Below, in pieces: positions 6,027 through 16,847 of a stretch of 46,136 nt of DNA. Numbering within the stretch: position 1 is the stretch's first letter; every line of letters starts with the position of its first letter. Made by a program: the position numbers and the translations under genes. Below the pieces are notes generated by a model, which worked only from the letters and a program-made list of their open reading frames with translations, was not told the DNA's origin and made no database searches. The DNA comes from a virus, in IMG/VR virus record IMGVR_UViG_3300029595_000010, positions 1 to 46,136 of that record; one strand, 5' to 3'.

Positions 6027-6209
6027 CTAGTTCAGGATCCTCGGCTCCCGCCGCTCGTCCTGATCTCGGCCTACGTCCGCGACGCAGGAAAACAGGAGCG
6101 GAATACCCTTGATGTAGTCCACGCTGACGCTATGCACATCTGTCAGCTTCGCACCGTCTACTGTTACGTCCACTTTCCCGTTGTTTACCCGGATATTGAT
6201 GCACTCCAT
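6027..6209 (-). CDS. 60-aa protein behind a LexA-box promoter; candidate SOS-induced antirepressor/inducer
   Basis: ORF track 6027..6227 trimmed to the ATG 7 nt after AGGAGG (MECINIRVNNGKV...). Confidence 0.6.
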   Translation of the reverse strand: MECINIRVNNGKVDVTVDGAKLTDVHSVSVDYIKGIPLLFSCVADVGRDQDERREPRILN

Positions 6210-6553: not shown

Positions 6554-7129
6554 ATGTCCGCAATACAGGATCTCGCTCCGTTTATCGGCGCGTATCAGGG
6601 GAAGATCAGAAGGGCAAAAGATGCAAGCGGGATGACGTTGGAGGAGCTGTCGAACGAGTCCGGCGTTTCCTTCTCTGCCGTGAGCCGATTATACGCTGGA
6701 ACACAAGCGGATCCACGGCTTTATAACTCGGCTGCGCTATGCAAAACGCTCGGGTTGTCGCTCGACGAGCTGTTCGGCCTTGAAAATCCCGTCGGAAGCC
6801 CGGAAAAGCTGACCAAGCAGATCCATCATGTCGAGCTTGAAAACGCCAAGCTGGAGGCAACAGCGGCCGCGCAAAGCGCACAGATAAAGTCTACACATAC
6901 AATGTGTTACGTCCTCGCCCTGTTTTGTATGCTGCTCTCCTTTTCTCTGATTGCCTGCCTTGTGGCGGATGCGCAGATTCGTAATGCAGGATTCATTCGA
7001 AACGGAGATTTGTCCGTAACCGCATGGGCGTGTATCGCCCTGATCGTAGGTTCAGCGCTGGCTTCGGCAATTACTTTCTACGCGATCCGAAAAGAACGTG
7101 GAGGGAAACATGGAGTGCATCAAGTGTAA
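6554..7129 (+). CDS. Membrane-anchored XRE-family HTH regulator (191 aa)
   Basis: N-terminal HTH (MTLEELSNESGVSFSAVSRLYAG) plus two C-terminal hydrophobic helices (CYVLALFCMLLSFSLIACLV; AWACIALIVGSALASAITFYAI). Confidence 0.8.
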   Translation: MSAIQDLAPFIGAYQGKIRRAKDASGMTLEELSNESGVSFSAVSRLYAGTQADPRLYNSAALCKTLGLSLDELFGLENPVGSPEKLTKQIHHVELENAKLEATAAAQSAQIKSTHTMCYVLALFCMLLSFSLIACLVADAQIRNAGFIRNGDLSVTAWACIALIVGSALASAITFYAIRKERGGKHGVHQV

Positions 7130-8213
7130 AAAAGAAATCCCAGACGGCGCGCCCTACTGTTGCTGGTGCGGAAAAAAACAGGAAGCGCGGCGAAACCGGA
7201 CACGCGGGAACGGGCAGGGAAGCGCTTACCAGCGAGGGAAGACGTGGACGGCGCGTTGGACAGAAAGAACTTACCTAGACGAGAACGACAAGCTTCGGCA
7301 AAGGATGCGAACAAAAGGCGGGTTTACATCAAAGCGCGCCGCCCTCCAATATGCTGCAAACCCTCCGAAGGAAGAGCAGCGAAGCCCCACTCTCAGAGAA
7401 TACTACAAAACATATCTGCGTGGGGATTATCTATCCTTATCGGCTGATCGTCAGGGCGCGGCGGAAAAGGCATTCGAGCGCATGAGAGAAATCGCCGACC
7501 GTGAGATCGACGCGCTTACCATCGCGCAGATACAGGATGTTATCGACCGCAACGCCAGCACCTATTACACACGGAAAGATATGAAAACCGTCCTCTCCCA
7601 CTGTTATAACCTCGCAATTGCAGAAAAGCAAACAACCGTGAATCTTGCAAAGTACATAAAGCTTCCGGAATTGGAAGAGAAGTCGCCGGAACCGTTTACC
7701 GACGCCGACGTAAAAAAGCTATGGGAAGCGTATGCAAAAGACCACTTCGTTGGGTTTATTTTAACGATGATTTATACCGGCATGATGCCCGGTGAGCTTC
7801 TGAAACTCAAGAAAGATATGATTGACTTTGAAAAGAATGAGATCGTCCGAGGCGGCATAAAGACAAAGAAGCGGAAGGAAACGCCTATGGTCTTCCCGGA
7901 TTTCGTTGCGCCGGTGCTGCATGAACTATGCGAAGAAAGCAAATCGCGCGTCGGAAATATCTGCTGCATAAACAAAGATAATTTTTACAAGAGATATTAT
8001 GAGTGTTTGGAGCTCGCCGGAGTGCAAAAGCTACCGCCTTACTCATGCCGCCATACAACCGCTACAGCCCTCGCGATGAAAAACATCGACCCGTTTACGA
8101 TCAAGGAAATCATGCGCCACACGAAGATAACGACTACCCAACGGTACGTACACCCGGACATGAAAGGCATGGTCGATGCCGTAAATCAGTTGCAAAGCGA
8201 CTCGCCAGAGTGA
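7110..8213 (+). CDS. int: Tyrosine integrase with N-terminal zinc ribbon
   Basis: MECIKCKKEIPDGAPYCCWCG..., then CRHTTATALAM...IMRHTKITTTQRYVH (R..H..R..Y catalytic signature); attP lies immediately downstream. Confidence 0.9.
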   Translation: MECIKCKKEIPDGAPYCCWCGKKQEARRNRTRGNGQGSAYQRGKTWTARWTERTYLDENDKLRQRMRTKGGFTSKRAALQYAANPPKEEQRSPTLREYYKTYLRGDYLSLSADRQGAAEKAFERMREIADREIDALTIAQIQDVIDRNASTYYTRKDMKTVLSHCYNLAIAEKQTTVNLAKYIKLPELEEKSPEPFTDADVKKLWEAYAKDHFVGFILTMIYTGMMPGELLKLKKDMIDFEKNEIVRGGIKTKKRKETPMVFPDFVAPVLHELCEESKSRVGNICCINKDNFYKRYYECLELAGVQKLPPYSCRHTTATALAMKNIDPFTIKEIMRHTKITTTQRYVHPDMKGMVDAVNQLQSDSPE

Positions 8214-8218
8214 ATTCT

Positions 8219-8242
8219 GTATGCTACAAAATATGTTACAAA
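8219..8242 (+). repeat. Arm-type repeats (GTATGCTACAAA, ATGTTACAAA), P arm
   Basis: Same decamer recurs at 8469-8478 and 8481-8492. Confidence 0.55.
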
Positions 8243-8275
8243 TGCCAATTTCCCCAGTGTTTTCAATGGTTTTTT

Positions 8276-8340
8276 CTCCCCTGCTAAGGGAGTAGGCGTC
8301 TAAAAAGCGCGCGAGAGTTCAAATCTCTCCTTCCGCGCCA
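8276..8340 (+). other. 3-prime fragment of tRNA-Ser(GCT): anticodon arm to CCA (attP core); not a complete tRNA
   Basis: ctccc-CTGCTAA-gggag, long variable arm, gagag-TTCAAAT-ctctc, cttccgcg-CCA. No matching 5-prime acceptor/D-arm upstream. Confidence 0.75.
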
Positions 8341-8386
8341 AAGTACCGATTTTAGCTGTTTTAAAGCTAAAATCGGTACTTTTTTA
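8341..8386 (+). terminator. Rho-independent terminator
   Basis: 16-bp perfect stem aagtaccgattttagc/gctaaaatcggtactt, then a T-run. Confidence 0.75.
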
Positions 8387-8447
8387 TGATTTTCACCCTA
8401 TTTTCTGCGTATTTTCAAAAAGCAAAAAATAACGTTATGACACGCTC

Positions 8448-8492
8448 TGTAACATAAAATTATTTCCCGTATGCTACATTGTATGCTACAAA
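8448..8492. repeat. Arm-type repeats, P-prime arm (one inverted, two direct)
   Basis: tgtaacat (inverted), gtatgctaca, gtatgctacaaa. Confidence 0.5.
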
Positions 8493-8526
8493 TTCAGCGC
8501 AATGCGAGGGGACTCCCCTATTTTTG

Positions 8527-8874
8527 CTACATGGACTTTATTTTCCGAAGCATAGAATCATAGACTTTTCGGTTCACAAGCGATAGTGTGTCCATAAGTT
8601 CATCAACAACCGCCCAAGCCCTTGCCGGGTCTTTCCCGGCTACCGCAAGTAAAAACTCACTGTCCCCGTACTCGCCCACGGTAGCCGGCTCTGCGGTCAC
8701 AGGGGCGGGAGCGCCGGAGTAGCAACCCACATACCTACCGCCGTCGCCCCGTTCCTCCTCCTGCATCTTGTCGCGTATCACATAAAGATCTGCCAGTTTG
8801 GCATAATTGGGATAGCTGGATTCCTCATATTCCAGCCGCGCTATCTCCTTGCGGATCTCGGCTTTATCCAGCAT
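8527..8874 (-). CDS. Cargo-operon protein, unknown function (115 aa)
   Basis: AAGGAGG RBS; ...EESSYPNYAKLADLYVIRDKM... Confidence 0.7.
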   Translation of the reverse strand: MLDKAEIRKEIARLEYEESSYPNYAKLADLYVIRDKMQEEERGDGGRYVGCYSGAPAPVTAEPATVGEYGDSEFLLAVAGKDPARAWAVVDELMDTLSLVNRKVYDSMLRKIKSM

Positions 8875-8885
8875 ATCGCGCCTCC

Positions 8886-9257
8886 TTATGCCCGCTCGAT
8901 CTGCTCCATGCAGCGGCGGATCGCTTCGCGGGTCTTATCGTCGTCCGCATCGCGCATCATATCGTCCAGCTGCGCGCGCATATGATCGCGGGCGTCTGTG
9001 CGGCTGTAGCGGCCCATTGCGTCGCGGCGGCGGCCACGGTAAGAGCTGCCCCGTCCATATGTACCGCGCATATCCGCCTCCCACTCGCCATCGCGGGAAT
9101 AGCCGCCGTCTTCAGCCATCTCGATCTTGTAGGTATTCTTGATGGAGCTCGTCAGCTTCTGGATCGCGTCCAGATCGCCCGCAGACATTTCGCGCTTGTC
9201 GGCGATTTCGTCAAGCTCTTTGCAGAGCATTTCGCGCAGGTTTCTCAAATCGTACAT
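8886..9257 (-). CDS. Cargo-operon protein, unknown function (123 aa), R/D/G/Y-rich centre
   Basis: ORF 8886..9275 trimmed to the ATG 7 nt after AAAGGAGG. Confidence 0.7.
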   Translation of the reverse strand: MYDLRNLREMLCKELDEIADKREMSAGDLDAIQKLTSSIKNTYKIEMAEDGGYSRDGEWEADMRGTYGRGSSYRGRRRDAMGRYSRTDARDHMRAQLDDMMRDADDDKTREAIRRCMEQIERA

Positions 9258-9271
9258 ATTGCATCCTCCTT

Positions 9272-9694
9272 TCACGATACGCGCTCGATGATCATATTGC
9301 TATTTGCGAAATTGATCGCCTGGGCGCTGGTGTTCTTCGCCGCTACAGTCAGGCAGCAGCCGCGCGGGACTTCCACGAATGTGGAAACAAAGATGTTAAA
9401 ATAGTTTTCAACAGCCGCAGGGGTTACGGTCGCTGTGGCGCTGCTCAGAGGTTCGCCGTTGATTGCAAGCGCAGCGGTAATGGCACCTACTGTTCCGCCT
9501 GTAGGGATGGCGATATTCGCGCCAAAGGATACGCGGAACTTCGCCTTGCATTGCTGCGTAAGCCCGCGCAGCGTAACAAGCCCGCTTCCTTCTCGATGTA
9601 CGATGCACGGCTTTCCGCAAGCCGCCGTGGAGATAAGCGGGACGTTCTGCCCAGCGGCGACAGTTTGAATCCCGGATGATGTAAATTCAGCCAT
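9272..9694 (-). CDS. Jelly-roll-like protein resembling the BclA C-terminal (C1q/TNF-like) exosporium domain (140 aa)
   Basis: Length, alternating beta pattern and C-terminus ...NSNMIIERVS resemble the BclA CTD ending ...SIIIEKVA (from memory). Confidence 0.55.
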   Translation of the reverse strand: MAEFTSSGIQTVAAGQNVPLISTAACGKPCIVHREGSGLVTLRGLTQQCKAKFRVSFGANIAIPTGGTVGAITAALAINGEPLSSATATVTPAAVENYFNIFVSTFVEVPRGCCLTVAAKNTSAQAINFANSNMIIERVS

Positions 9695-9813
9695 AAAATC
9701 ATTCCTTTCATAAAAATACAGCGGCAGGGCGATTGCCCCGCCGCGTTGTTGTCAGTATCGGCACGGGGCCGACCATTTTCGTGAGGTCACGAAAAAGCTA
9801 TGCTATGCAGTTG

Positions 9814-9921
9814 TCAGCAGCCGCACCCCTGATTGCAGCCACAGCCGCCATAGCCGCTGTTCATCATGCCGGTTGGCGCAACAGGCATAGTGGCCTGAAC
9901 GCCGCCGTCAGAAAGAGACAT
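9814..9921 (-). CDS. Unlisted 35-aa Gly/Cys-rich peptide MSLSDGGVQATMPVAPTGMMNSGYGGCGCNQGCGC
   Basis: AAAGGAG 7 nt before the ATG; followed by a stem-loop plus T-run. Confidence 0.5.
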   Translation of the reverse strand: MSLSDGGVQATMPVAPTGMMNSGYGGCGCNQGCGC

Positions 9922-9987
9922 AGTATCACTCCTTTGAAAAATTTTTATTCATCAAATCGTGGCCACGATGTTGATTTATGTTGATGA

Positions 9988-10200
9988 TTACTGCATCAGG
10001 TTTTGAAACTGCTTCGCCATCTGCTGTAGCTGATTGAGCTGCTGCTGGTTTAGCTTACCACTCTGCAAGAGCTTTTCGACCTCGGCTTTGGGGTCGCCCT
10101 TGAAATTTGCTTTGAACTGGTTGAACTGCTGCACCATCTGTGCAAAATTGCCCATCGGCATCTGCCCGCCGCCCAGCGCGGCCATAAACGGATTACTCAT
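9988..10200 (-). CDS. Q-rich small protein (70 aa)
   Basis: ORF track; overlaps the upstream gene by 8 nt. Confidence 0.6.
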   Translation of the reverse strand: MSNPFMAALGGGQMPMGNFAQMVQQFNQFKANFKGDPKAEVEKLLQSGKLNQQQLNQLQQMAKQFQNLMQ

Positions 10201-10642
10201 CGTCTTCGTCCTCCTCGGCCTTGCGTTTCTTTTTGCCCTTTATTTCGCCCACAAGAGCCGCCAGCGCGTCAAACTCTTTACGGGTGACAAATTCCATGCC
10301 CTTTCCCTGCGGAGATGTACGGGGCGTCTCTGCGCGCTCTACAAGGTCGTAAATCTTGAGCGTCGGCTTCCCGCTTGCATCCGCCTGCTTGAGATACACA
10401 GTCGGCGCGGTAGAATCCCACAGCGCCACAGCGGAGTTGGGCGCGATGAGATAACCCCTTGCCTCCTGCTCGCCGTTTACCCACTGCACACCGCTCTGCG
10501 CGATGGGGTTCTGTTGCACTGGCTGCGACATAGGCTGCTGCATGGGCTGCATCTGTGGCTGCTGCATCTGCCGCATCTGCATGAGGTTATCCGGCATCGG
10601 CTGCGGATAATAGGGATTGAAATAGGGATATGCCATGTTCAT
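10193..10642 (-). CDS. Protein with a Q/P/M-rich N-terminus and a compact C-terminal domain (149 aa)
   Basis: MNMAYPYFNPYYPQPMPDNLMQMRQMQQPQMQPMQQPM...; ATGA coupling to the upstream gene. Confidence 0.65.
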   Translation of the reverse strand: MNMAYPYFNPYYPQPMPDNLMQMRQMQQPQMQPMQQPMSQPVQQNPIAQSGVQWVNGEQEARGYLIAPNSAVALWDSTAPTVYLKQADASGKPTLKIYDLVERAETPRTSPQGKGMEFVTRKEFDALAALVGEIKGKKKRKAEEDEDDE

Positions 10643-11025
10643 TCCTCCGTTTCTTTTACCCAGTAATAAAGCGGGATTTCGTTCTCGCTATTCCAGCTGT
10701 CATAGATCGTCCCATCCTGCACGCACACTACATGCCCAGAGAGGGCGAGAATATACGTCCCGCGCGGGTGCTCATCGGCAAACCTGCCGACCGTGTAGCA
10801 GTCCGGGCAGGTGTTCGGCATCACGTTCCGGGTAAAACCATGCTGCCGTAGGTATGCACCCCATACACTGTTTGCGCTCGGCAGATCTCCCATGATGAGT
10901 CCTTGCAGGCACAATCCGATATACACCTCGTCCCAGCTCTTCCCGGTCGCCTTTGCGATGGCCCGGACGGTGCAGTCCCCGACCTTCTGCCCGGCGGGGT
11001 TTGGATTAAAATAAGAAAAGCCCAT
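10639..11025 (-). CDS. Papain-like cysteine peptidase-fold candidate (128 aa)
   Basis: ORF 10639..11103 trimmed to the ATG after AAAGGAG; GDCTVRAIA (Cys), LSGHVVCV (His), DSWNS. Confidence 0.55.
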   Translation of the reverse strand: MGFSYFNPNPAGQKVGDCTVRAIAKATGKSWDEVYIGLCLQGLIMGDLPSANSVWGAYLRQHGFTRNVMPNTCPDCYTVGRFADEHPRGTYILALSGHVVCVQDGTIYDSWNSENEIPLYYWVKETEE

Positions 11026-11108
11026 ACCGAACACTCCTTTGTGTGTCCAGTATGGACCTTTTTGCGGCTTCTTGTGCCTCAGTTGTGTATCAATTTGGTT
11101 CAAAATTT

Positions 11109-11133
11109 AAGCCCGCGGTTATTCCACGGGCTT
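11109..11133 (-). terminator. Stem-loop terminator between the two cargo operons
   Basis: 10-bp stem with one mismatch, flanked by A/T runs on both sides. Confidence 0.45.
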
Positions 11134-11141
11134 AGTTTTTG

Positions 11142-11483
11142 TTATCGTTCGTTTACAGCCAGAATCTCCGCCGCCATCGCGGCCACATACGGCGGGCATC
11201 CACGCCGTCCGCCGCACCAGTCCTGCACGGTGCGCAGCGGGATTCCAAAATACCGCGCAAATCCGGTCTGCGTCAGGCCGTATTTTTTGATCACATCCGG
11301 GATCATGCAGTGCGTGCCGTCCCAGATCCCGCCGAGCAGCGCAATCCGCTCTGCCGGAACATTTGCGTCTTCGGCATCGCCCCAGACGCTGGACAGTGCC
11401 ATATCGGAGATATAGGCGTCGCGGTCGGTGTATGCGCCGGTTTCGGCGTAGAGGGCGGAGCGGATAAAGGGTGTGAGTTTCAT
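11142..11483 (-). CDS. HTH DNA-binding protein (113 aa)
   Basis: ATGA coupling; ...YGLTQTGFARYFGIPLRTVQDWCGGRRGCPPYV... Confidence 0.7.
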   Translation of the reverse strand: MKLTPFIRSALYAETGAYTDRDAYISDMALSSVWGDAEDANVPAERIALLGGIWDGTHCMIPDVIKKYGLTQTGFARYFGIPLRTVQDWCGGRRGCPPYVAAMAAEILAVNER

Positions 11484-12121
11484 GTGGATTCCTCCTTGCT
11501 TTTCTTCGCGGACTTCTTCTTTTCCAGGTACTCTTCTTTGTTTTCTGCATACCACTGCTGCCATCGCTCTTTGTATTGCTCGGTATGCTCCTGATAATGC
11601 AGCGCAGTAAGCTGCCGGGCTCGGATACGCAGGCATTCCTCCGAGCAGCATTTGTCACGCGCCCCATCCAGCAGGAACGGCTTTCCGCACACAATGCAGT
11701 TTGCTGTTGCGATGGCTCTGGAATCAGTACGGGCCCTTCTCTGCTCCGCACCGCCGTTGTAAAAGCGTTCGAGGCAGTATTCGTTCGTGCGCTTTTTGGC
11801 GCAGTCCGGGCAGTAACGCTGCAAACCGCCCTCTACAGTGTATTCGGCTCCGCAGCGCTCGCAGATATCCTTTGAGCCGATGGGGCGGGTTTTGCCCGCC
11901 GCCTTTCGCTTCCTGCATTCTGCGCGGGCAATCCGTTTTCGCGCTTCGCTGCAATCCGGGCAGTAAAATGAGCGCGTACCATATGTTTCATAGCTCTTCT
12001 CGCAATCCGCGCAAACCTTTGTGCGCAGGGCTCTCACTGGAGCCCTGCGGCACTTTTGGCATCTTGTATCGCGCGAGAATCCTTCGAAGTGCGCACCGCA
12101 CTGAGAACAGATACGATCCAT
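11480..12121 (-). CDS. Multi-zinc-ribbon protein (213 aa; at least four CxxC...CxxC units)
   Basis: CSQCG..CQKC, CADC..CPDC, CERCG..CPDC, CIVCG..CCSEEC. Confidence 0.7.
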   Translation of the reverse strand: MDRICSQCGAHFEGFSRDTRCQKCRRAPVRALRTKVCADCEKSYETYGTRSFYCPDCSEARKRIARAECRKRKAAGKTRPIGSKDICERCGAEYTVEGGLQRYCPDCAKKRTNEYCLERFYNGGAEQRRARTDSRAIATANCIVCGKPFLLDGARDKCCSEECLRIRARQLTALHYQEHTEQYKERWQQWYAENKEEYLEKKKSAKKSKEEST

Positions 12122-12124
12122 CGA

Positions 12125-12388
12125 TCAGAAGCAATACGCGCTGATGGGCTGACCGTCGATGCGGACGGTGGCGAGTGTATCGTCGCTGAAATCGGGATAG
12201 TCAGCGTCTTCAATGCTGTCTGCAAGTTCGTCCAGTGTGTAGCCAAAGTACACGCAGAATGCATCGCCCAGGCAGGCATCCATATCGCGGCAGAGGATCG
12301 CGGACTGTTCTTCCGTGTCACCAGCCTCGGTGGCAATGGCAGTGCAAGCAATGAGTTCGTAACGGTTGTTGATGATCTTGGTTTCCAT
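12125..12388 (-). CDS. Highly acidic small protein (87 aa); possible DNA mimic/anti-defence (speculative)
   Basis: D/E-rich throughout; first gene behind the operator-containing consensus promoter. Confidence 0.65.
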   Translation of the reverse strand: METKIINNRYELIACTAIATEAGDTEEQSAILCRDMDACLGDAFCVYFGYTLDELADSIEDADYPDFSDDTLATVRIDGQPISAYCF

Positions 12389-12433
12389 GTTGTACCTCTT
12401 TCCGGCTTTCGCCTTGTTTTATCTTATGGCCTT

Positions 12434-12462
12434 ATTATACACGCAATGCGTGTAATTGTCAA
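12434..12462 (-). promoter_or_regulatory. Consensus sigma-A promoter TTGACA-17-TATAAT
   Basis: Read directly on the reverse complement, 40 nt upstream of the acidic-protein ATG. Confidence 0.7.
12439..12453. promoter_or_regulatory. 7-1-7 palindromic operator ACACGCA-A-TGCGTGT inside the promoter spacer
   Basis: Perfect inverted repeat. Confidence 0.6.
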
Positions 12463-12480
12463 GAGGAAAATGCAGAAATT

Positions 12481-12513
12481 TTTAAAAATAAGCGCCGATT
12501 TCTCGGCGCTTAT
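12481..12513 (-). terminator. Rho-independent terminator ending the late/lysis transcript
   Basis: 11-bp stem ataagcgccga/tcggcgcttat, 4-nt loop, T-run on the minus strand. Confidence 0.8.
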
Positions 12514-12514
12514 C

Positions 12515-12763
12515 TCAGTTATACAGTTTGCTGGATGTCCGCTGCATCTCCCGCATGATCTCCGGCAGGCGGCGCTGTACCGTGGCGCGGCCCAGAAACA
12601 GCTCTGTTGCAACGTCTACCTGGGGAAGCTTATCCACAAAATAGAGCTGCGCGATCTTCTCATTTTCCCGGCCAAGATTGGCCTGATAGATTACGGCCTC
12701 CATATCCTTTCTGGTCAGCCTGCCCAGCTCTGGCGGCAGCTTGGCCCGCGCCTGCGGCGACAT
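12515..12763 (-). CDS. Sigma-70 region-4-like HTH mini-protein (82 aa)
   Basis: AAGGAGG RBS; ...EKIAQLYFVDKLPQVDVATELFLGRATVQRRL... Confidence 0.65.
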   Translation of the reverse strand: MSPQARAKLPPELGRLTRKDMEAVIYQANLGRENEKIAQLYFVDKLPQVDVATELFLGRATVQRRLPEIMREMQRTSSKLYN

Positions 12764-12776
12764 ACGCCCCGCCTCC

Positions 12777-13487
12777 TTACTTTTCCTTGTGATTCAGCAC
12801 AGCGATATTGCCCTTGTTGCCGACTTCGAGATCCAGCGCAGCGGCCAGATCGCGCACCTTGACGTAGTTCGTGCCGTTCTTCAGGATGCGCTCAACGGTG
12901 ACTTCCTTTCCGTCGACGATGATTTTGCTCTTTTCTATCATTTCGGTTTCCTCCTCTGCATTTTTTCCATCTTCGAGGGCCATCACGGTATGGCCCGAGC
13001 TTACCAGTACGTCGCCGCGCAGGAGATTGGCGTCTGTCGTTAGGTACTTGCTGCCGGTCAGCAGCTCAAAGTCTCCCGTTGCGGGCCAATCGTGCAGCAT
13101 ACAGTAGGTGGTGCAGCTGTTGCCCTGCCGACGGTAGAGCGCTTCGACCGACGCGCAGCCTGCAGCCACGGCGCAGAGCATCATGAGCGCGGAGCAGTCC
13201 GTCTCCACGGGCTTTGTGATCTTGCTCACGTCCCACCCGACGGCTCTGGCTGCCTCATACGCCGTGTTCCTGTTGTCCATGTCGTAGCCGATGTTCCGGT
13301 TCTTAATGGCCGCCTCGCACGTCTGTGCGGCCCGCTCGGCCTTTTTGCGGCTCTTGTAGCGCAGTACGCCGAGCCAGCGGCCATTGTACCAGTTGGAGAT
13401 ATTCAGCTCCCGCCCGGTCTGGTTTCCGGGCTGCTGCCCGTGGCCGCCTGTCTCTCCAAGACTGGCCTGTCCGATCTTGATACTCAT
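12777..13487 (-). CDS. Endolysin: Cys/His peptidase-type catalytic domain plus a copper-amine-oxidase-N-like wall-binding domain
   Basis: ETDCSAL and SSGHTVM motifs; C-terminal IVDGKEVTVERILKNGTNYVKVRDLAAALDLEV; adjacent to holins. Confidence 0.75.
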   Translation of the reverse strand: MSIKIGQASLGETGGHGQQPGNQTGRELNISNWYNGRWLGVLRYKSRKKAERAAQTCEAAIKNRNIGYDMDNRNTAYEAARAVGWDVSKITKPVETDCSALMMLCAVAAGCASVEALYRRQGNSCTTYCMLHDWPATGDFELLTGSKYLTTDANLLRGDVLVSSGHTVMALEDGKNAEEETEMIEKSKIIVDGKEVTVERILKNGTNYVKVRDLAAALDLEVGNKGNIAVLNHKEK

Positions 13488-13792
13488 GCCCGCTCACTCC
13501 CGTACAACTCGTGATGCAGCTGCAGCACGGCGGCCTCGATCAGCTGATCGATTGTAGATACGTCGAACCGGATTCCGTGTTCGGCCAGAAAATTGATCAC
13601 ATAGGCTTTCTTTTCCTCGCCGTCCGTTGCCGCGTAGAGCTGCTCCGCCGCCTTGACGCCGATCTCGACGTATGTTTTGATGGTTTGCAGTTTGTTGGCG
13701 TCGATCTTGGTTTTGAGCCACGGGATCAGAAACGCCGAAACGAGCGCGCTGATGAGCGCGATCACTGCCGAGATGATCTGTGTGTAGTCCAT
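13484..13792 (-). CDS. Holin, LL-H-like
   Basis: N-terminal TM IISAVIALISALVSAFLIPWL, then a helical tail; ATGA overlap with the endolysin. Confidence 0.65.
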   Translation of the reverse strand: MDYTQIISAVIALISALVSAFLIPWLKTKIDANKLQTIKTYVEIGVKAAEQLYAATDGEEKKAYVINFLAEHGIRFDVSTIDQLIEAAVLQLHHELYGSERA

Positions 13793-14428: not shown

Positions 14429-14857
14429 CTAATCGTCCGCCATTTTGATGTAGGTGGTGGTATCGCTGGAATAGCTGATCGTCGGCAGCGTCGTGCCGCC
14501 GAGGGCTGCGTAGAGGGCCGGGTAGGCTATCTGGTCGAAGGTCGAGCCGTCGCAGGCGTGCCACGGGGCGGATAGGACGCGGACGGTCGTGAGGATATCG
14601 CCGACGTGATAATTCGGCTCCGACAGCTTCCCGAATGCCTCATTTACCATCGGGTTCGCCGGTGCGTCGCCCGCTCGCCAGATCTTTGCGGCGCTCTGTG
14701 CCGTCAGCAGGTTCCCGGCTGTGAGCGGCGTCCCGGCTTCCAGCGGCTCGTCCTCCGGGCGAAGCCATTCATAACGCAGCAGACTTCCCGCCGCGTCATA
14801 CGCCCCGTAGCGGACGGCCCCGTTTGCGAGATCGTTTGTGCCGATTCTATCCCGCAT
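14429..14857 (-). CDS. Short tail-fibre paralog with tail-collar motif (142 aa)
   Basis: Aligns over its whole length with the N-terminal ~130 aa of 14860..16353 (LANGA[IV]RYG.Y...GTPL...NLL...AAKIW...GD[IL]...CDG). Confidence 0.75.
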   Translation of the reverse strand: MRDRIGTNDLANGAVRYGAYDAAGSLLRYEWLRPEDEPLEAGTPLTAGNLLTAQSAAKIWRAGDAPANPMVNEAFGKLSEPNYHVGDILTTVRVLSAPWHACDGSTFDQIAYPALYAALGGTTLPTISYSSDTTTYIKMADD

Positions 14858-14859
14858 GG

Positions 14860-16353
14860 CTATTCCTCCAGCGCCTTGATGTAGGCATTGCTTCTTGTGT
14901 CCGTCCCGATGGTAGGGATTTCTTTTCCCGCCGCGCTATAATCGCAGTACGCCAGCCCATTCGATGATATGTATGCCGCCTCCCCGTCCGGCGATAGTGC
15001 AATACTGTCGACGCTGCTCCCCAGTACGTCTCCATATACCGGGCCGGATGCTGGAGCGCTGATCGCAATGATCTTTTCCGCTCGATCAGCACTTTCAGAT
15101 TCGCTTGCGGTTTCTGAAAGCACCAAAAGCCCGTTTTCGTATTTGCCGTTCGTATAGTTGTCGAGCGAGTAGCTATCGGTTTTGTAGGAAACTACCTTCC
15201 CGTTTTCCCACGTTGCACCGTAGTCCGCAGAATACCTGTATACCATATATCCGCTATACATCGTGGTTCCCGCACCAGAGAAAGCAGCGTTCACCAGTGC
15301 AAAAAAAGCAATTATATTTGCCCCACAATGGTAAGCTGACATCAGGGCGTGATAGGTGTACGTCGACGGCTGGTTGAAGGACGGAGTTAATTCTTCGATG
15401 TTTACGCTGCTGACTGCCTCCCAGGTCGGATTGATCAGGGTTTTTGCCTTTGAAGTCTCCAGTATGCCGCTGGTGCTACAGTTCAGCTTGTAAAAGCAGT
15501 CCTTTTCTTCGGCGTAAAATACAATTCCGCTGATAAAATCTGGGATGCTTACTATTTCCTTTGTTGTTTGGTTTACGTAGCTGGCACTTACTTCTCTTCC
15601 ATTGTAATTGTTATAGGATCCGTATTCGCCTCTTACTACGTAGATATACAGAACGTTTGGCGTAATAAACATCTTCAGTCCAGCGCTTCCAGGCAGGCTG
15701 CCGCTTGCATATAGCGTAAATGGCGCATCGAGACTATGCGTTGTGTACACTCCGTTTGCCTCTGTGGAGTCTCCGGAAAAAACAGCGTAATAAGTGCCGT
15801 TTGCATACTGCACATCCGATACCAACGAGAGTCCGGGCGGCATATCCGCCTGCTGCGTCCACGTCCCCAAATCGGGCGACGTCCAGAACTTTCTGTCGTG
15901 TAGGCCGACCCATTCCCCATTCAGATACCACATAAATCCAGGTTGAATATTCGATGACTTCAACGCCCACGGAAGCGGCGCGGCAGAGCTTCTGAGCACA
16001 GAAAACAGTTTTGGATACTTCTCCTGTGATACAGTGCGCCCGTCGCACGGCAGCCATGCGTCGGACAGGTCTGTGCGGGCGGTGATAGCGATGTCGCCGA
16101 CTTTGGCCGTACCCTCCGAAAGCTTGCCGAGCGCGTCATTCACGGTCGGGTCGTCCGGCTTCTTCGAGCCGGGCCAGATCTTCGCGGCGGTTGCATCGGA
16201 TAGCAGATTTGCCTTGTTGAGTGGCGTTCCCTCGACGGTGGGCGCGTCCTCGCGCTTGAGGTATTCGTAGTGGTTGAGCGTGCCGTCGGCGTTATAGACG
16301 CCGTAGCGGATCGCGCCGTTGGCTAAAACCTGTGTTGGCTGCCTATCTTTCAT
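14860..16353 (-). CDS. Tail fibre / receptor-binding protein: tail-collar N-terminus plus a C-terminal domain with a BNR/Asp-box
   Basis: ORF 14860..16377 trimmed to the ATGA-coupled ATG; GDIAITARTDLSDAWLPCDGRTVSQEKYPKLF; canonical Asp-box SADYGATW. Confidence 0.8.
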   Translation of the reverse strand: MKDRQPTQVLANGAIRYGVYNADGTLNHYEYLKREDAPTVEGTPLNKANLLSDATAAKIWPGSKKPDDPTVNDALGKLSEGTAKVGDIAITARTDLSDAWLPCDGRTVSQEKYPKLFSVLRSSAAPLPWALKSSNIQPGFMWYLNGEWVGLHDRKFWTSPDLGTWTQQADMPPGLSLVSDVQYANGTYYAVFSGDSTEANGVYTTHSLDAPFTLYASGSLPGSAGLKMFITPNVLYIYVVRGEYGSYNNYNGREVSASYVNQTTKEIVSIPDFISGIVFYAEEKDCFYKLNCSTSGILETSKAKTLINPTWEAVSSVNIEELTPSFNQPSTYTYHALMSAYHCGANIIAFFALVNAAFSGAGTTMYSGYMVYRYSADYGATWENGKVVSYKTDSYSLDNYTNGKYENGLLVLSETASESESADRAEKIIAISAPASGPVYGDVLGSSVDSIALSPDGEAAYISSNGLAYCDYSAAGKEIPTIGTDTRSNAYIKALEE

Positions 16354-16847
16354 GTGAGTAATCCTCCTGCGGCGCACTCCGCCGCGCCGGTGTGGCGAAA
16401 AGATTTTGCAACGTTGACGATTAAGTCCTCGCAGAGCACCAGAATGCGCTCGATATCATTTGCGCCGGTGTAGGTCAGGCGCGCCAGCTGCGGCGCGTCC
16501 GGCGTCCCGGCAGGATACGCAAGCGCGTCGCGAATGTCTTGTATCTGCCGCCGGTATTCCGCCGCCTGTGAGGCCGTTTGGATGTCCGTGACGGCCCAAT
16601 CGGTTTTCGCCGTCCATGCAATGCTCCTGCCGCAAATCGAGCTGAGGCGGACCGCCAGATAGTTCAGGGCCGTTCCCACGCGATTGAGATCAGCGGCGTT
16701 GTACGCGCCCTTCATCCCGGCCAGCCATTCCGCCTGCTCGGCTGCCGTCATGGCCGCGAACCCCTTCGCCGCCAGCTCCCGCACCCGCTCCACATCCGCC
16801 TGCGTGCGGTCGGTGACGAGCGTAACGATGATAGTCGTGGTGTCCAT
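16350..16847 (-). CDS. Tail-fibre-module protein (165 aa)
   Basis: TDRTQADVERV...KGAYNAADLNRVG motif, common next to fibre genes (from memory). Confidence 0.65.
   Translation of the reverse strand: MDTTTIIVTLVTDRTQADVERVRELAAKGFAAMTAAEQAEWLAGMKGAYNAADLNRVGTALNYLAVRLSSICGRSIAWTAKTDWAVTDIQTASQAAEYRRQIQDIRDALAYPAGTPDAPQLARLTYTGANDIERILVLCEDLIVNVAKSFRHTGAAECAAGGLLT

Follow-up and report, generated by a model that had tools for sequence, protein, structure and literature searches.

Which function is served by a compact row of seven small genes next to the attachment site of a phage genome? The question is raised by the virus record IMGVR_UViG_3300029595_000010, positions 1 to 46,136 (46,136 nt in all; below, the window), which reads as the genome of a temperate siphophage with the late genes on the minus strand, and by its cluster at 8527..11025, minus strand, whose genes are called here g1 to g7. 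A sequence-only reading of the cluster had proposed a cargo operon of proteins resembling those of the spore coat and exosporium, by which a prophage would modify the spore or surface of its host. Judging by comparison of sequences, the cluster is a conserved, portable cassette, neither sporadic cargo nor strain-specific, and the copy in the window has suffered an internal deletion. We tentatively favour the explanation that the window holds, in damaged form, a self-regulated, portable accessory cassette of gut Clostridia siphophages (Oscillospiraceae, Lachnospiraceae), acting late and organised around g4 and g5.

Seven co-directional open reading frames (ORFs) are indeed present on the minus strand, each preceded by a ribosome-binding site of the GGAG type. 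The g1, g2 and g3 ORFs overlap or abut, and g5, g6 and g7 are spaced by 11–14 nt. As described earlier, the cluster lies between a neighbouring three-gene unit on one side and an attP-like region on the other. Public gene calls of identical lengths exist for the ORFs of the window, six of the seven fall into conserved protein families, and the exact g1, g2, g5, g6 and g7 proteins are found on at least 1000 contigs each. The description as one operon holds only in part: the genes are co-directional, but since conserved hairpins flank g4 on both sides, including an intrinsic terminator at 9744..9721 right before the ribosome-binding site of g5, the cluster is not a single uninterrupted operon.

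Annotation transfer yields little for this set. Pfam, NCBIfam and PADLOC assign no family to the cassette proteins, the PHROGs matches are all of "unknown function", and the homologues are named "hypothetical protein" throughout in their sources. Sequence and profile searches against the PDB with g1, g2, full-length g4, g5, g6 and g7 produced chance or coiled-coil matches only. A hydrophobic N-terminal segment is seen in g4 only, and a signal peptide in none of the soluble products, as read directly from the sequences.

We searched 78 genome loci, phage records and metagenome contigs by tblastn and iterated profiles. The order g1-g2-g3-g4-g5-g6-g7 recurs at about 90 loci, with the g5 identity as low as 33%; nearly all of these loci are metagenome-assembled genomes or metagenome contigs, and the host labels of short contigs are unreliable. 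The commonest minimal and most persistent set is formed by g2, g4 and g5, and g5 is the most conserved member across phages of humans, lemurs, rodents and the rumen. All near relatives of the window have kept the cassette. An identical g5 protein (P0043) occurs in phages that differ in tail fibres, in lysins (Amidase_3 with SPOR, ELLD, other) and in integrases, tyrosine or serine; at the P0043 loci the cassette stands at the prophage end, adjoining host genes. At one locus, L064, the cassette, with a sigma-like gene before it, has a head-tail adaptor gene on one side and a fibre gene on the other, and the head gene set is unrelated. The word "cargo" had to be abandoned for a conserved cassette of the backbone type.

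Most hosts are Clostridia. The genus Butyrivibrio does not form spores, and neither do Subdoligranulum, Christensenella and Pseudobutyrivibrio; contigs binned under the latter three names, the binning being uncertain, also carry the cassette. The cassette is complete in Butyrivibrio virus Ceridwen (proteins QHJ73765-73769, QHJ73771 and QHJ73772). This phage is without an excisionase, only its lytic cycle has been observed, on B. fibrisolvens, and the literature on its cassette genes offers nothing beyond "hypothetical" (PMC7372960).

Several insertions were seen. In Ceridwen, an HNH-type homing endonuclease (L001:7518-8312; phrog_374, E 3e-65) is inserted between g5 and g6, and Dulem virus 33 has an insert annotated only as "endonuclease" between g3 and g4 (L002:4410-4961). 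An extra helical ORF of 68-109 aa stands between the RNA element described below and g5 at L006:5793-5999, L010:5793-6008, L019:5679-6008, L027:5802-6008 and L029:4485-4709, and in many lineages an ORF of ~45 aa, "g0", directly precedes g1. The cassette therefore comprises 7 to 10 genes, depending on the lineage.

The fourth position is where the window departs from the other loci. The sequence-only reading had listed here a gene for a 35-aa Gly/Cys peptide (g4, 9814..9921). At every other locus, a phrog_16490 protein of 240-300 aa is encoded between g3 and g5, and the near-identical relatives L091-L096 (of which L091, L093, L095 and L096 are integrated copies, beside cobW/galK) have a gene of 253-258 aa at this position; among the about 90 loci, the window is the only one without full g4. 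In alignment with the full-length protein, the peptide covers both termini, with its first 23 aa and its last 12 aa. The deletion junction retains one copy of a 16-nt direct repeat, AGCGGCTWTGGCGGCT (9843..9858, minus strand), which megablast aligns both to 6168-6183 and to 6837-6852 of L092; the intervening 669 bp are gone, and the reading frame is kept. By these alignments, the peptide is the scar of an internal deletion, a 35-codon remnant of a protein of ~258 aa, and not a gene family. A candidate role as a bacteriocin or a precursor of a ribosomally synthesised and post-translationally modified peptide was ruled out on the same ground.

Full-length g4 has a short N-terminal tail, one Gly/Trp-flanked hydrophobic helix predicted to be transmembrane, and a Q/N-rich helical coiled coil in which the motif CCC is invariant; there is also a stretch PxPxPAY, and the C-terminus is rich in Cys and Gly. 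It matches no holin or spanin family, and there are no fusions among the 120 relatives listed, all of which are 227–259 aa long. With PADLOC, the only match is at E 0.0026 (15 bits), to the coiled-coil stretch of PD-T4-6. For both the g4 and the g5 family, searches returned at least 8000 scored candidates, nearly all of them significant. The 35-aa product is found on about 10 contigs from independent samples, including complete genomes of ~45 kb, against at least 1000 contigs for its neighbours. The g4-deleted variant is therefore real, rare and tolerated. The window copy lacks a core component. The predicted transmembrane segment and the coiled-coil body of g4 having been removed, the cassette of the window is probably non-functional or altered.

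The g5 gene (9272..9694, phrog_20016) encodes a stand-alone jelly roll of 140 aa. The AlphaFold2 model is all-beta, with a predicted local distance difference test (pLDDT) score of 69 and a predicted template-modelling score (pTM) of 0.66. The top PDB structures found by Foldseek are the C-terminal domain (CTD) of F-BclA (9h38), the BclA CTD (1wck, 2z5w), BxpB (8d02) and TNF/C1q proteins, with E from ~6e-6 to 4e-5 and template-modelling scores of 0.69–0.77; EDA, C1q and the N-domain of the BC2L-C lectin are also among the matches. The likeness to the BclA CTD, noted earlier from the layout and the C-terminus, thus stands at the level of fold and fails at the level of sequence: g5 has no Pfam match at E≤1, BclA_C included, no PDB sequence match at E≤10, no GXX repeats and no exosporium leader. 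Many positions are invariant, among them C49 and C113-C114, and C30 is a further conserved cysteine. The family comprises more than 7900 clusters at 90% identity and 614 clusters at 50%. None of its best 150 representatives exceeds 196 aa, and most are about 140 aa long, so the listed relatives have no fibre or collagen region.

Two groups of proteins share this fold. The BclA CTD, the F-BclA CTD and BxpB (ExsFA) of the exosporium in the B. cereus group are of the same fold class and size as g5 (about 135–150 aa); BxpB is likewise stand-alone, and the C-terminal strand motif NMIIERVS resembles the end of BclA by eye. However, identity to g5 is only 9–14%, g5 is a phage product, found even in a lytic phage whose host forms no spores, and the exosporium proteins sit on an ExsY/CotY basal layer, whereas g5 is partnered with a transmembrane protein. 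The second group is viral. Searched against the viral models of BFVD, g5 matches TNF/C1q-like fibre tips and small gut-phage ORFs, including ones named "BclA protein"; several of the latter are stand-alone, 130–145 aa long, and come from metagenome genomes of Siphoviridae, Myoviridae and Podoviridae. Unlike g5, most of the characterised viral TNF/C1q domains are the C-terminal parts of long fibres, and none of the viral relatives has a described function or a conserved g4 partner. A literature search returned nothing on stand-alone TNF-like phage proteins. Since TNF/C1q folds are common in viral fibres and small gut-phage proteins, the fold is not specific for spores; that it is shared with exosporium proteins in a context without sporulation is a caution against inferring spore biology from fold or composition alone.

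The cassette seems to have regulatory elements of its own. The candidate regulator is sig82 (12515..12763, minus strand), an 82-aa protein resembling region 4 of sigma-70, with a helix-turn-helix, and matched by PHROG phrog_36, transcriptional regulator. Its start is 13 nt past the stop of the endolysin gene, with neither a promoter nor a terminator between them. A sig82 homologue stands directly upstream of the cassette at 14 loci, and in the unrelated context of L064 the cassette is preceded by a sigma-like gene of 95 aa (phrog_1190).

Upstream of g1 there is a promoter-like region (11047..11092, minus strand) with two direct repeats of 10–11 nt, TGATACACAA and CTGAGGCACA, a spacer of 18 nt and CATACT. 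This motif is kept at seven loci with differing upstream neighbours and occurs once in the 46-kb window. It has no consensus -35 box, terminators flank the cluster, and the region presumably depends on an activator. It was also considered as a promoter of the sigmaE/sigmaK type, and this was dropped, the spacing being unlike the consensus. In other lineages, a terminator and the small g0 ORF precede g1 and leave no room for a promoter, which implies read-through from the late operon.

Two RNA structures flank g4. The hairpin between g3 and g4 (9951..9975, minus strand; arms ATCAACATCGTGG and CCACGATTTGAT) was found by eye and by folding single sequences; at most of the loci examined a hairpin is present at the same position, although the sequence of its stem differs. 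The junction of g4 and g5 contains an element of ~80 nt with three hairpins (9713..9794, minus strand), the third being the intrinsic terminator 9744..9721. The covariance model R1 of this element finds one copy per locus at 49 related loci (e.g. L021:5882-5961, L087:8878-8959) and nothing elsewhere in 871 kb; each copy stands directly before g5 or, at loci with the extra small ORF, directly before that ORF. All 26 sequences fold alike individually. In an alignment fitted to the R1 model, at least 20 sequences of which were not used for building it, 94.5% of the cells are paired and 18 of 21 pairs have compensatory changes; many pairs are G-U. The covariation is 0.473; shuffles give 0.224, and slid controls no more than 0.145. 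A sigma-70 promoter inside the element was considered and rejected: because of the many G-U pairs and the compensatory changes, RNA structure is the preferred description. There is no relevant Rfam match at E≤1 over 8000..13000, and the element is apparently a new, undescribed covarying motif. Attenuation, put-like antitermination and stabilisation of the mRNA are its possible roles, and the three-hairpin leader may report on antitermination of phage late genes in Firmicutes.

The first gene of the cassette, g1 (10639..11025, phrog_3754), encodes a protein of 128 aa, which the sequence-only reading took for a candidate papain-like Cys/His peptidase. In 34 homologues D17-C18, H98 and D109 are invariant, and the AlphaFold2 model (pLDDT 86) has a helix at 17-27 and a strand at 99-103. 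In sequence and model together, the cysteine thus appears on an N-terminal helix and the histidine and aspartate downstream on a beta-sheet, as in papain-like enzymes. The order Cys...His...Asp and the positions of Cys at the start of the N-terminal helix and of His at a beta-strand, followed by Asp, are shared with the clan CA papain-like peptidases and Josephin, whereas the protein, at 128 aa, is unusually small and the structural match is weak. As the only near-significant match of Foldseek against the PDB is Josephin-2 (E 0.049, probability 0.85, template-modelling score 0.47), a papain-like enzyme is plausible but not proven: the Cys and His of the earlier description stand, the fold less firmly. 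A profile search against the PDB gave nothing relevant, and there is no Pfam or MEROPS-type match, be it to C39, NlpC/P60 or transglutaminases. Two specific candidates were rejected, a Tgl-type transglutaminase, with no Pfam match and none among the 50 Foldseek PDB matches listed, and a C39 bacteriocin peptidase, with no C39/C39_2 Pfam match and no transporter in the cassette.

The g1 family also stands alone in Bacillus Tsamsa-like phages, in Lak phages and in Geobacillus GBK2, where early genes and genes for recombination surround it. Residues 73-76 of g1, CPDC (10798..10809), form a strand-CxxC-helix that is locally glutaredoxin-like (the PDB match, 7c10, is at chance level); the motif is kept in most homologues, not in all. 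A redox role is possible but not required.

The amino-acid composition noted earlier for three products is borne out by counts. The g2 protein (10193..10636, 147 aa, phrog_21718) has a low-complexity N-terminus, with Q/P/M/Y making up 76% of the first 45 aa versus 14% of the rest, then a conserved beta-rich core of ~50 aa (WVxGE...YxK..D.SG) and a helix with a charged tail, as seen in 38 aligned homologues; it has no relative in Pfam or the PDB. The g3 protein (9988..10200, 70 aa, phrog_22984), whose gene overlaps the g2 stop by 8 nt, is helical, with 31% Q+N, and was found at 59 loci. In the g4 remnant, Gly and Cys make up 37%. The two genes that had been called conserved-looking unknowns proved to be widespread. 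The g6 gene (8886..9257, phrog_28802), encoding a helical protein of 123 aa with a central R/G/S/Y-rich segment and no PDB relative, was found at 63 loci, and g7 (8527..8874), encoding a helical protein of 115 aa and being the last gene before attP, at 39 loci; g7 has no family match in Pfam or PHROGs and no PDB match. For none of g2, g3, g6, g7 and full-length g4 was a relative of known function detectable. The protein collection puts g6 and g7 into one cluster at 90% identity (cluster 6), which is probably an artefact of fused or overlapping gene calls; as paralogues they were rejected, the hhalign probability being 1.8%.

The explanation that we prefer, as yet tentatively, would work as follows. 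An intact cassette would consist of the sigma-region-4-like regulator, g1, g2, g3, g4 of about 250 aa, the RNA element with its terminator, g5, g6 and g7. The regulator would be produced together with the holin and the endolysin at the end of the late operon and would turn on the cassette-specific promoter very late in the lytic cycle. The soluble products would then gather in the cytoplasm on membrane-anchored g4, with g5, presumably a trimer, as its conserved core partner, the low-complexity g2, g3 and g6 proteins as multivalent linkers and g1 as a processing enzyme. The assembly would act on the host envelope or leave with the virions at lysis, and its action would not depend on virion architecture, lysin type or integration system. 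The cassette is probably expressed late; the pairing of regulator and promoter, the membrane topology of g4 and the physical association of the products we infer.

Three observations point this way. Because the cassette moves among phages with differing fibres, lysins and integrases and, in L064, to a different head set, action on the host or the environment is suggested rather than a part fitted to the virion. Very late lytic expression is preferred to expression in the lysogen because the regulator is tied to lysis, transcription passes through terminators and the cassette is retained in a lytic phage. The tight linkage of g4 and g5, together with translational coupling, suggests a multi-protein assembly on a membrane anchor.

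Other observations weigh against this explanation. A terminator-bounded position on the attP side is the classic site of lysogenic-conversion genes. Many lineages have no recognisable sig82 homologue upstream, it being found at 14 loci, and others have g0 after a terminator. As the deleted variant recurs in about 10 assemblies, complete genomes of ~45 kb among them, g4 is dispensable for persistence, and the tolerated loss could mean that the cassette matters little. Finally, the model of g5 is of only moderate confidence (pLDDT 69) and the fold match of g1 is weak (E 0.049).

Beyond this general scheme, the cassette might build a self-assembling protein structure in or on the dying host, either a coat like an exosporium or occlusion body, or a membrane-anchored condensate; we regard this as unlikely. 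Here the Tyr/Pro/Gln-rich g2 and the Arg/Gly/Tyr-rich g6 may be sticker-spacer partners, the g5 trimer may serve as a multivalent node, the Cys-rich g4 as the anchor and g1 as the maturation enzyme. If true, progeny phage would be sheltered or clustered in the gut, a phage function for which we know of no described precedent in Caudoviricetes.

The g5 protein, with its helpers, could attach to finished particles as a decoration or an adhesin, possibly a TNF-like lectin for gut mucin or bacterial glycans, the remaining products being assembly chaperones. TNF/C1q-like domains are typical of viral fibre tips, the BC2L-C lectin domain is among the PDB matches, g5 is the member conserved best across phages of different animals, and the neighbours of the cassette in L064 are genes for head and tail. 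However, the family is stand-alone (no protein above 196 aa among the best 150), its most tightly linked gene encodes a transmembrane partner, and the window has tail-fibre proteins elsewhere. Moreover, a fixed docking site is unlikely because the same or identical g5 accompanies different fibre sets and, in L064, unrelated head genes. On balance, a virion accessory seems rather improbable.

Full-length g4 with its short N-terminal tail, one predicted transmembrane helix and large C-domain with conserved cysteines has the layout of T4 holin T and the i-spanins, and the cassette directly follows the holin, the endolysin and the regulator. It could thus be imagined as a holin-like effector of class III, a spanin-like effector or a timing factor in lysis and egress, with the soluble proteins as regulators. 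We consider this rather improbable, as g4 has no match among holin and spanin families, a recognisable holin is already present in every phage, the deletion of g4 is tolerated and the hosts are monoderm; eight genes including one for a TNF-like protein also go far beyond any lysis accessory set known to us.

Incorporation into the spore, the original idea, can be stated as a lysogenic-conversion module: the mother cell, during sporulation, would make the products, which would become part of the coat or exosporium of the host spore. In this case g5 would correspond to the BclA CTD or BxpB, g2 and g3 to cross-linking substrates like GerQ, and g4 to Cys-rich material. The top solved structures for g5 are the exosporium proteins F-BclA, BclA and BxpB, the set as a whole (TNF-like, Cys-rich, Q/P-rich, R/S/Y-rich) parallels that of coat and exosporium, the products have no signal peptide, like coat proteins, the cassette adjoins attP, and the hosts are mostly Clostridia, a class that includes spore formers. 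Yet the profile check for BclA_C, GerQ and coat families gave no match in any of the seven proteins (Pfam, NCBIfam), and when g2 and g3 were scanned against NCBIfam at E≤5, in view of the supposed likeness of the Q-rich proteins to GerQ, neither GerQ nor a coat family appeared. The gene for the regulator forms a continuation of the lysis operon, which indicates expression in the lytic phase and not in a sporulating lysogen. The contigs binned, with the same uncertainty, as Subdoligranulum, Christensenella and Pseudobutyrivibrio point away from spores as well. The cassette is complete in Ceridwen, seen only in lytic growth on Butyrivibrio, a non-sporulating host of the kind that the sequence-only reading had itself named as evidence to the contrary. 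The main text of a survey of sporulation genes in gut phages names no coat or exosporium genes (PMC10294663). We therefore hold a role in the spore to be quite improbable.

An island that the prophage would express for defence, superinfection exclusion or anti-defence is very unlikely, for although the interval between lysis genes and attP is a known hotspot of accessory genes, an Acb2/Tad1-hairpin gene adjoins the lysis cassette in close relatives, and a membrane protein with a protease is a common effector layout, there is no significant PADLOC match (only that of g4 at E 0.0026), low-complexity Q/P/Y and R/G/Y proteins and a slowly evolving g5 are atypical of arms-race genes, and the cassette is retained in a lytic phage.

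Among known genetic arrangements, the closest to the favoured self-regulated accessory cassette are the morons, or lysogenic-conversion cassettes, of temperate Firmicutes phages. The cassette shares with them the position between lysis genes and attP, the bounding terminators and the exchange among phages, and, as the g4-deleted variant indicates, it is also dispensable. It differs in having 8–9 genes in a fixed order, conserved down to about 30% identity, in that a lytic phage has it and that it stands, once, within a structural operon, and in the co-transcription of its likely regulator with lysis genes. A small sigma-like regulator next to holin and endolysin is also a feature of the TcdR/TcdE locus (PaLoc) of C. 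difficile and of UviA with the bacteriocin BCN5; it drives products without signal peptides, and their exit via lysis is possible. Here sig82 differs in being only an 82-aa region-4-like protein, and the cassette has no toxin-like product. The genomic kind, an accessory cassette at the junction of lysis genes and attP, is familiar, whereas no counterpart has been described for its content, for the dedicated regulator or for the RNA element.

The cassette is among the commonest uncharacterised gene sets of the phages of human-gut Clostridia, and seven "hypothetical proteins" become one testable system, a portable unit that brings along a regulator, a promoter and an RNA element. A cultured lytic pair carries it, Ceridwen on B. 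fibrisolvens DSM 3071, and the natural g4 deletion variant is a ready comparison.

The neighbourhood of the cluster contains the tail-fibre genes at 14429..16377, a holin gene at 13484..13792 and a gene for an ELLD-type endolysin at 12777..13487, and the gene for a tyrosine integrase at 7098..8213 on the plus strand. The actual moron of the window is the three-gene unit at 12462..11142 (11142..12462, minus strand), encoding proteins of 87 aa, 213 aa (a multi-CxxC zinc-ribbon protein) and 113 aa. It has its own sigma-70 promoter, TTGACA-17-TATAAT at 12462..12434, identical to the consensus in 12 of 12 positions, its own terminator hairpin near 11135..11100 and a variable middle. The unit is inserted between sig82 and the cassette promoter and is missing in L081; in the relatives L091 and L094, otherwise 96–99% identical, its first two genes (12402..11483) are swapped for others. 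It has no match in Pfam or PADLOC.

On the other side of the cluster, the attP-like region contains a partial sequence resembling a class-II tRNA, with a weak Rfam tRNA match at 8256..8331 (12.5 bits) and a T-arm and CCA-like end, read by eye, up to 8340 on the plus strand; ARAGORN finds no tRNA at attP. The tRNA-like sequence (8256..8340, plus strand) is flanked by three exact copies of TGTAGCATAC on the minus strand (8219..8228, 8469..8478 and 8481..8490), and an 18-bp hairpin terminator is situated at 8340..8382. The TGTAGCATAC copies and the tRNA-like stretch are probably the arm sites of the integrase and the attP core in the 3' end of a tRNA.

The last observation concerns the holin slot. 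In the window, L092 and L094 this slot holds a holin of Phage_holin_6_1, and in L091 (1879-2091), L095 (2098-2310) and L096 (1878-2090) it is occupied by a gene for a 70-aa protein with the hairpin domain Acb2/Tad1 (PF24729), a family of anti-CBASS/anti-Thoeris sponges. The difference suggests that the lysis cassette has undergone an anti-defence swap.

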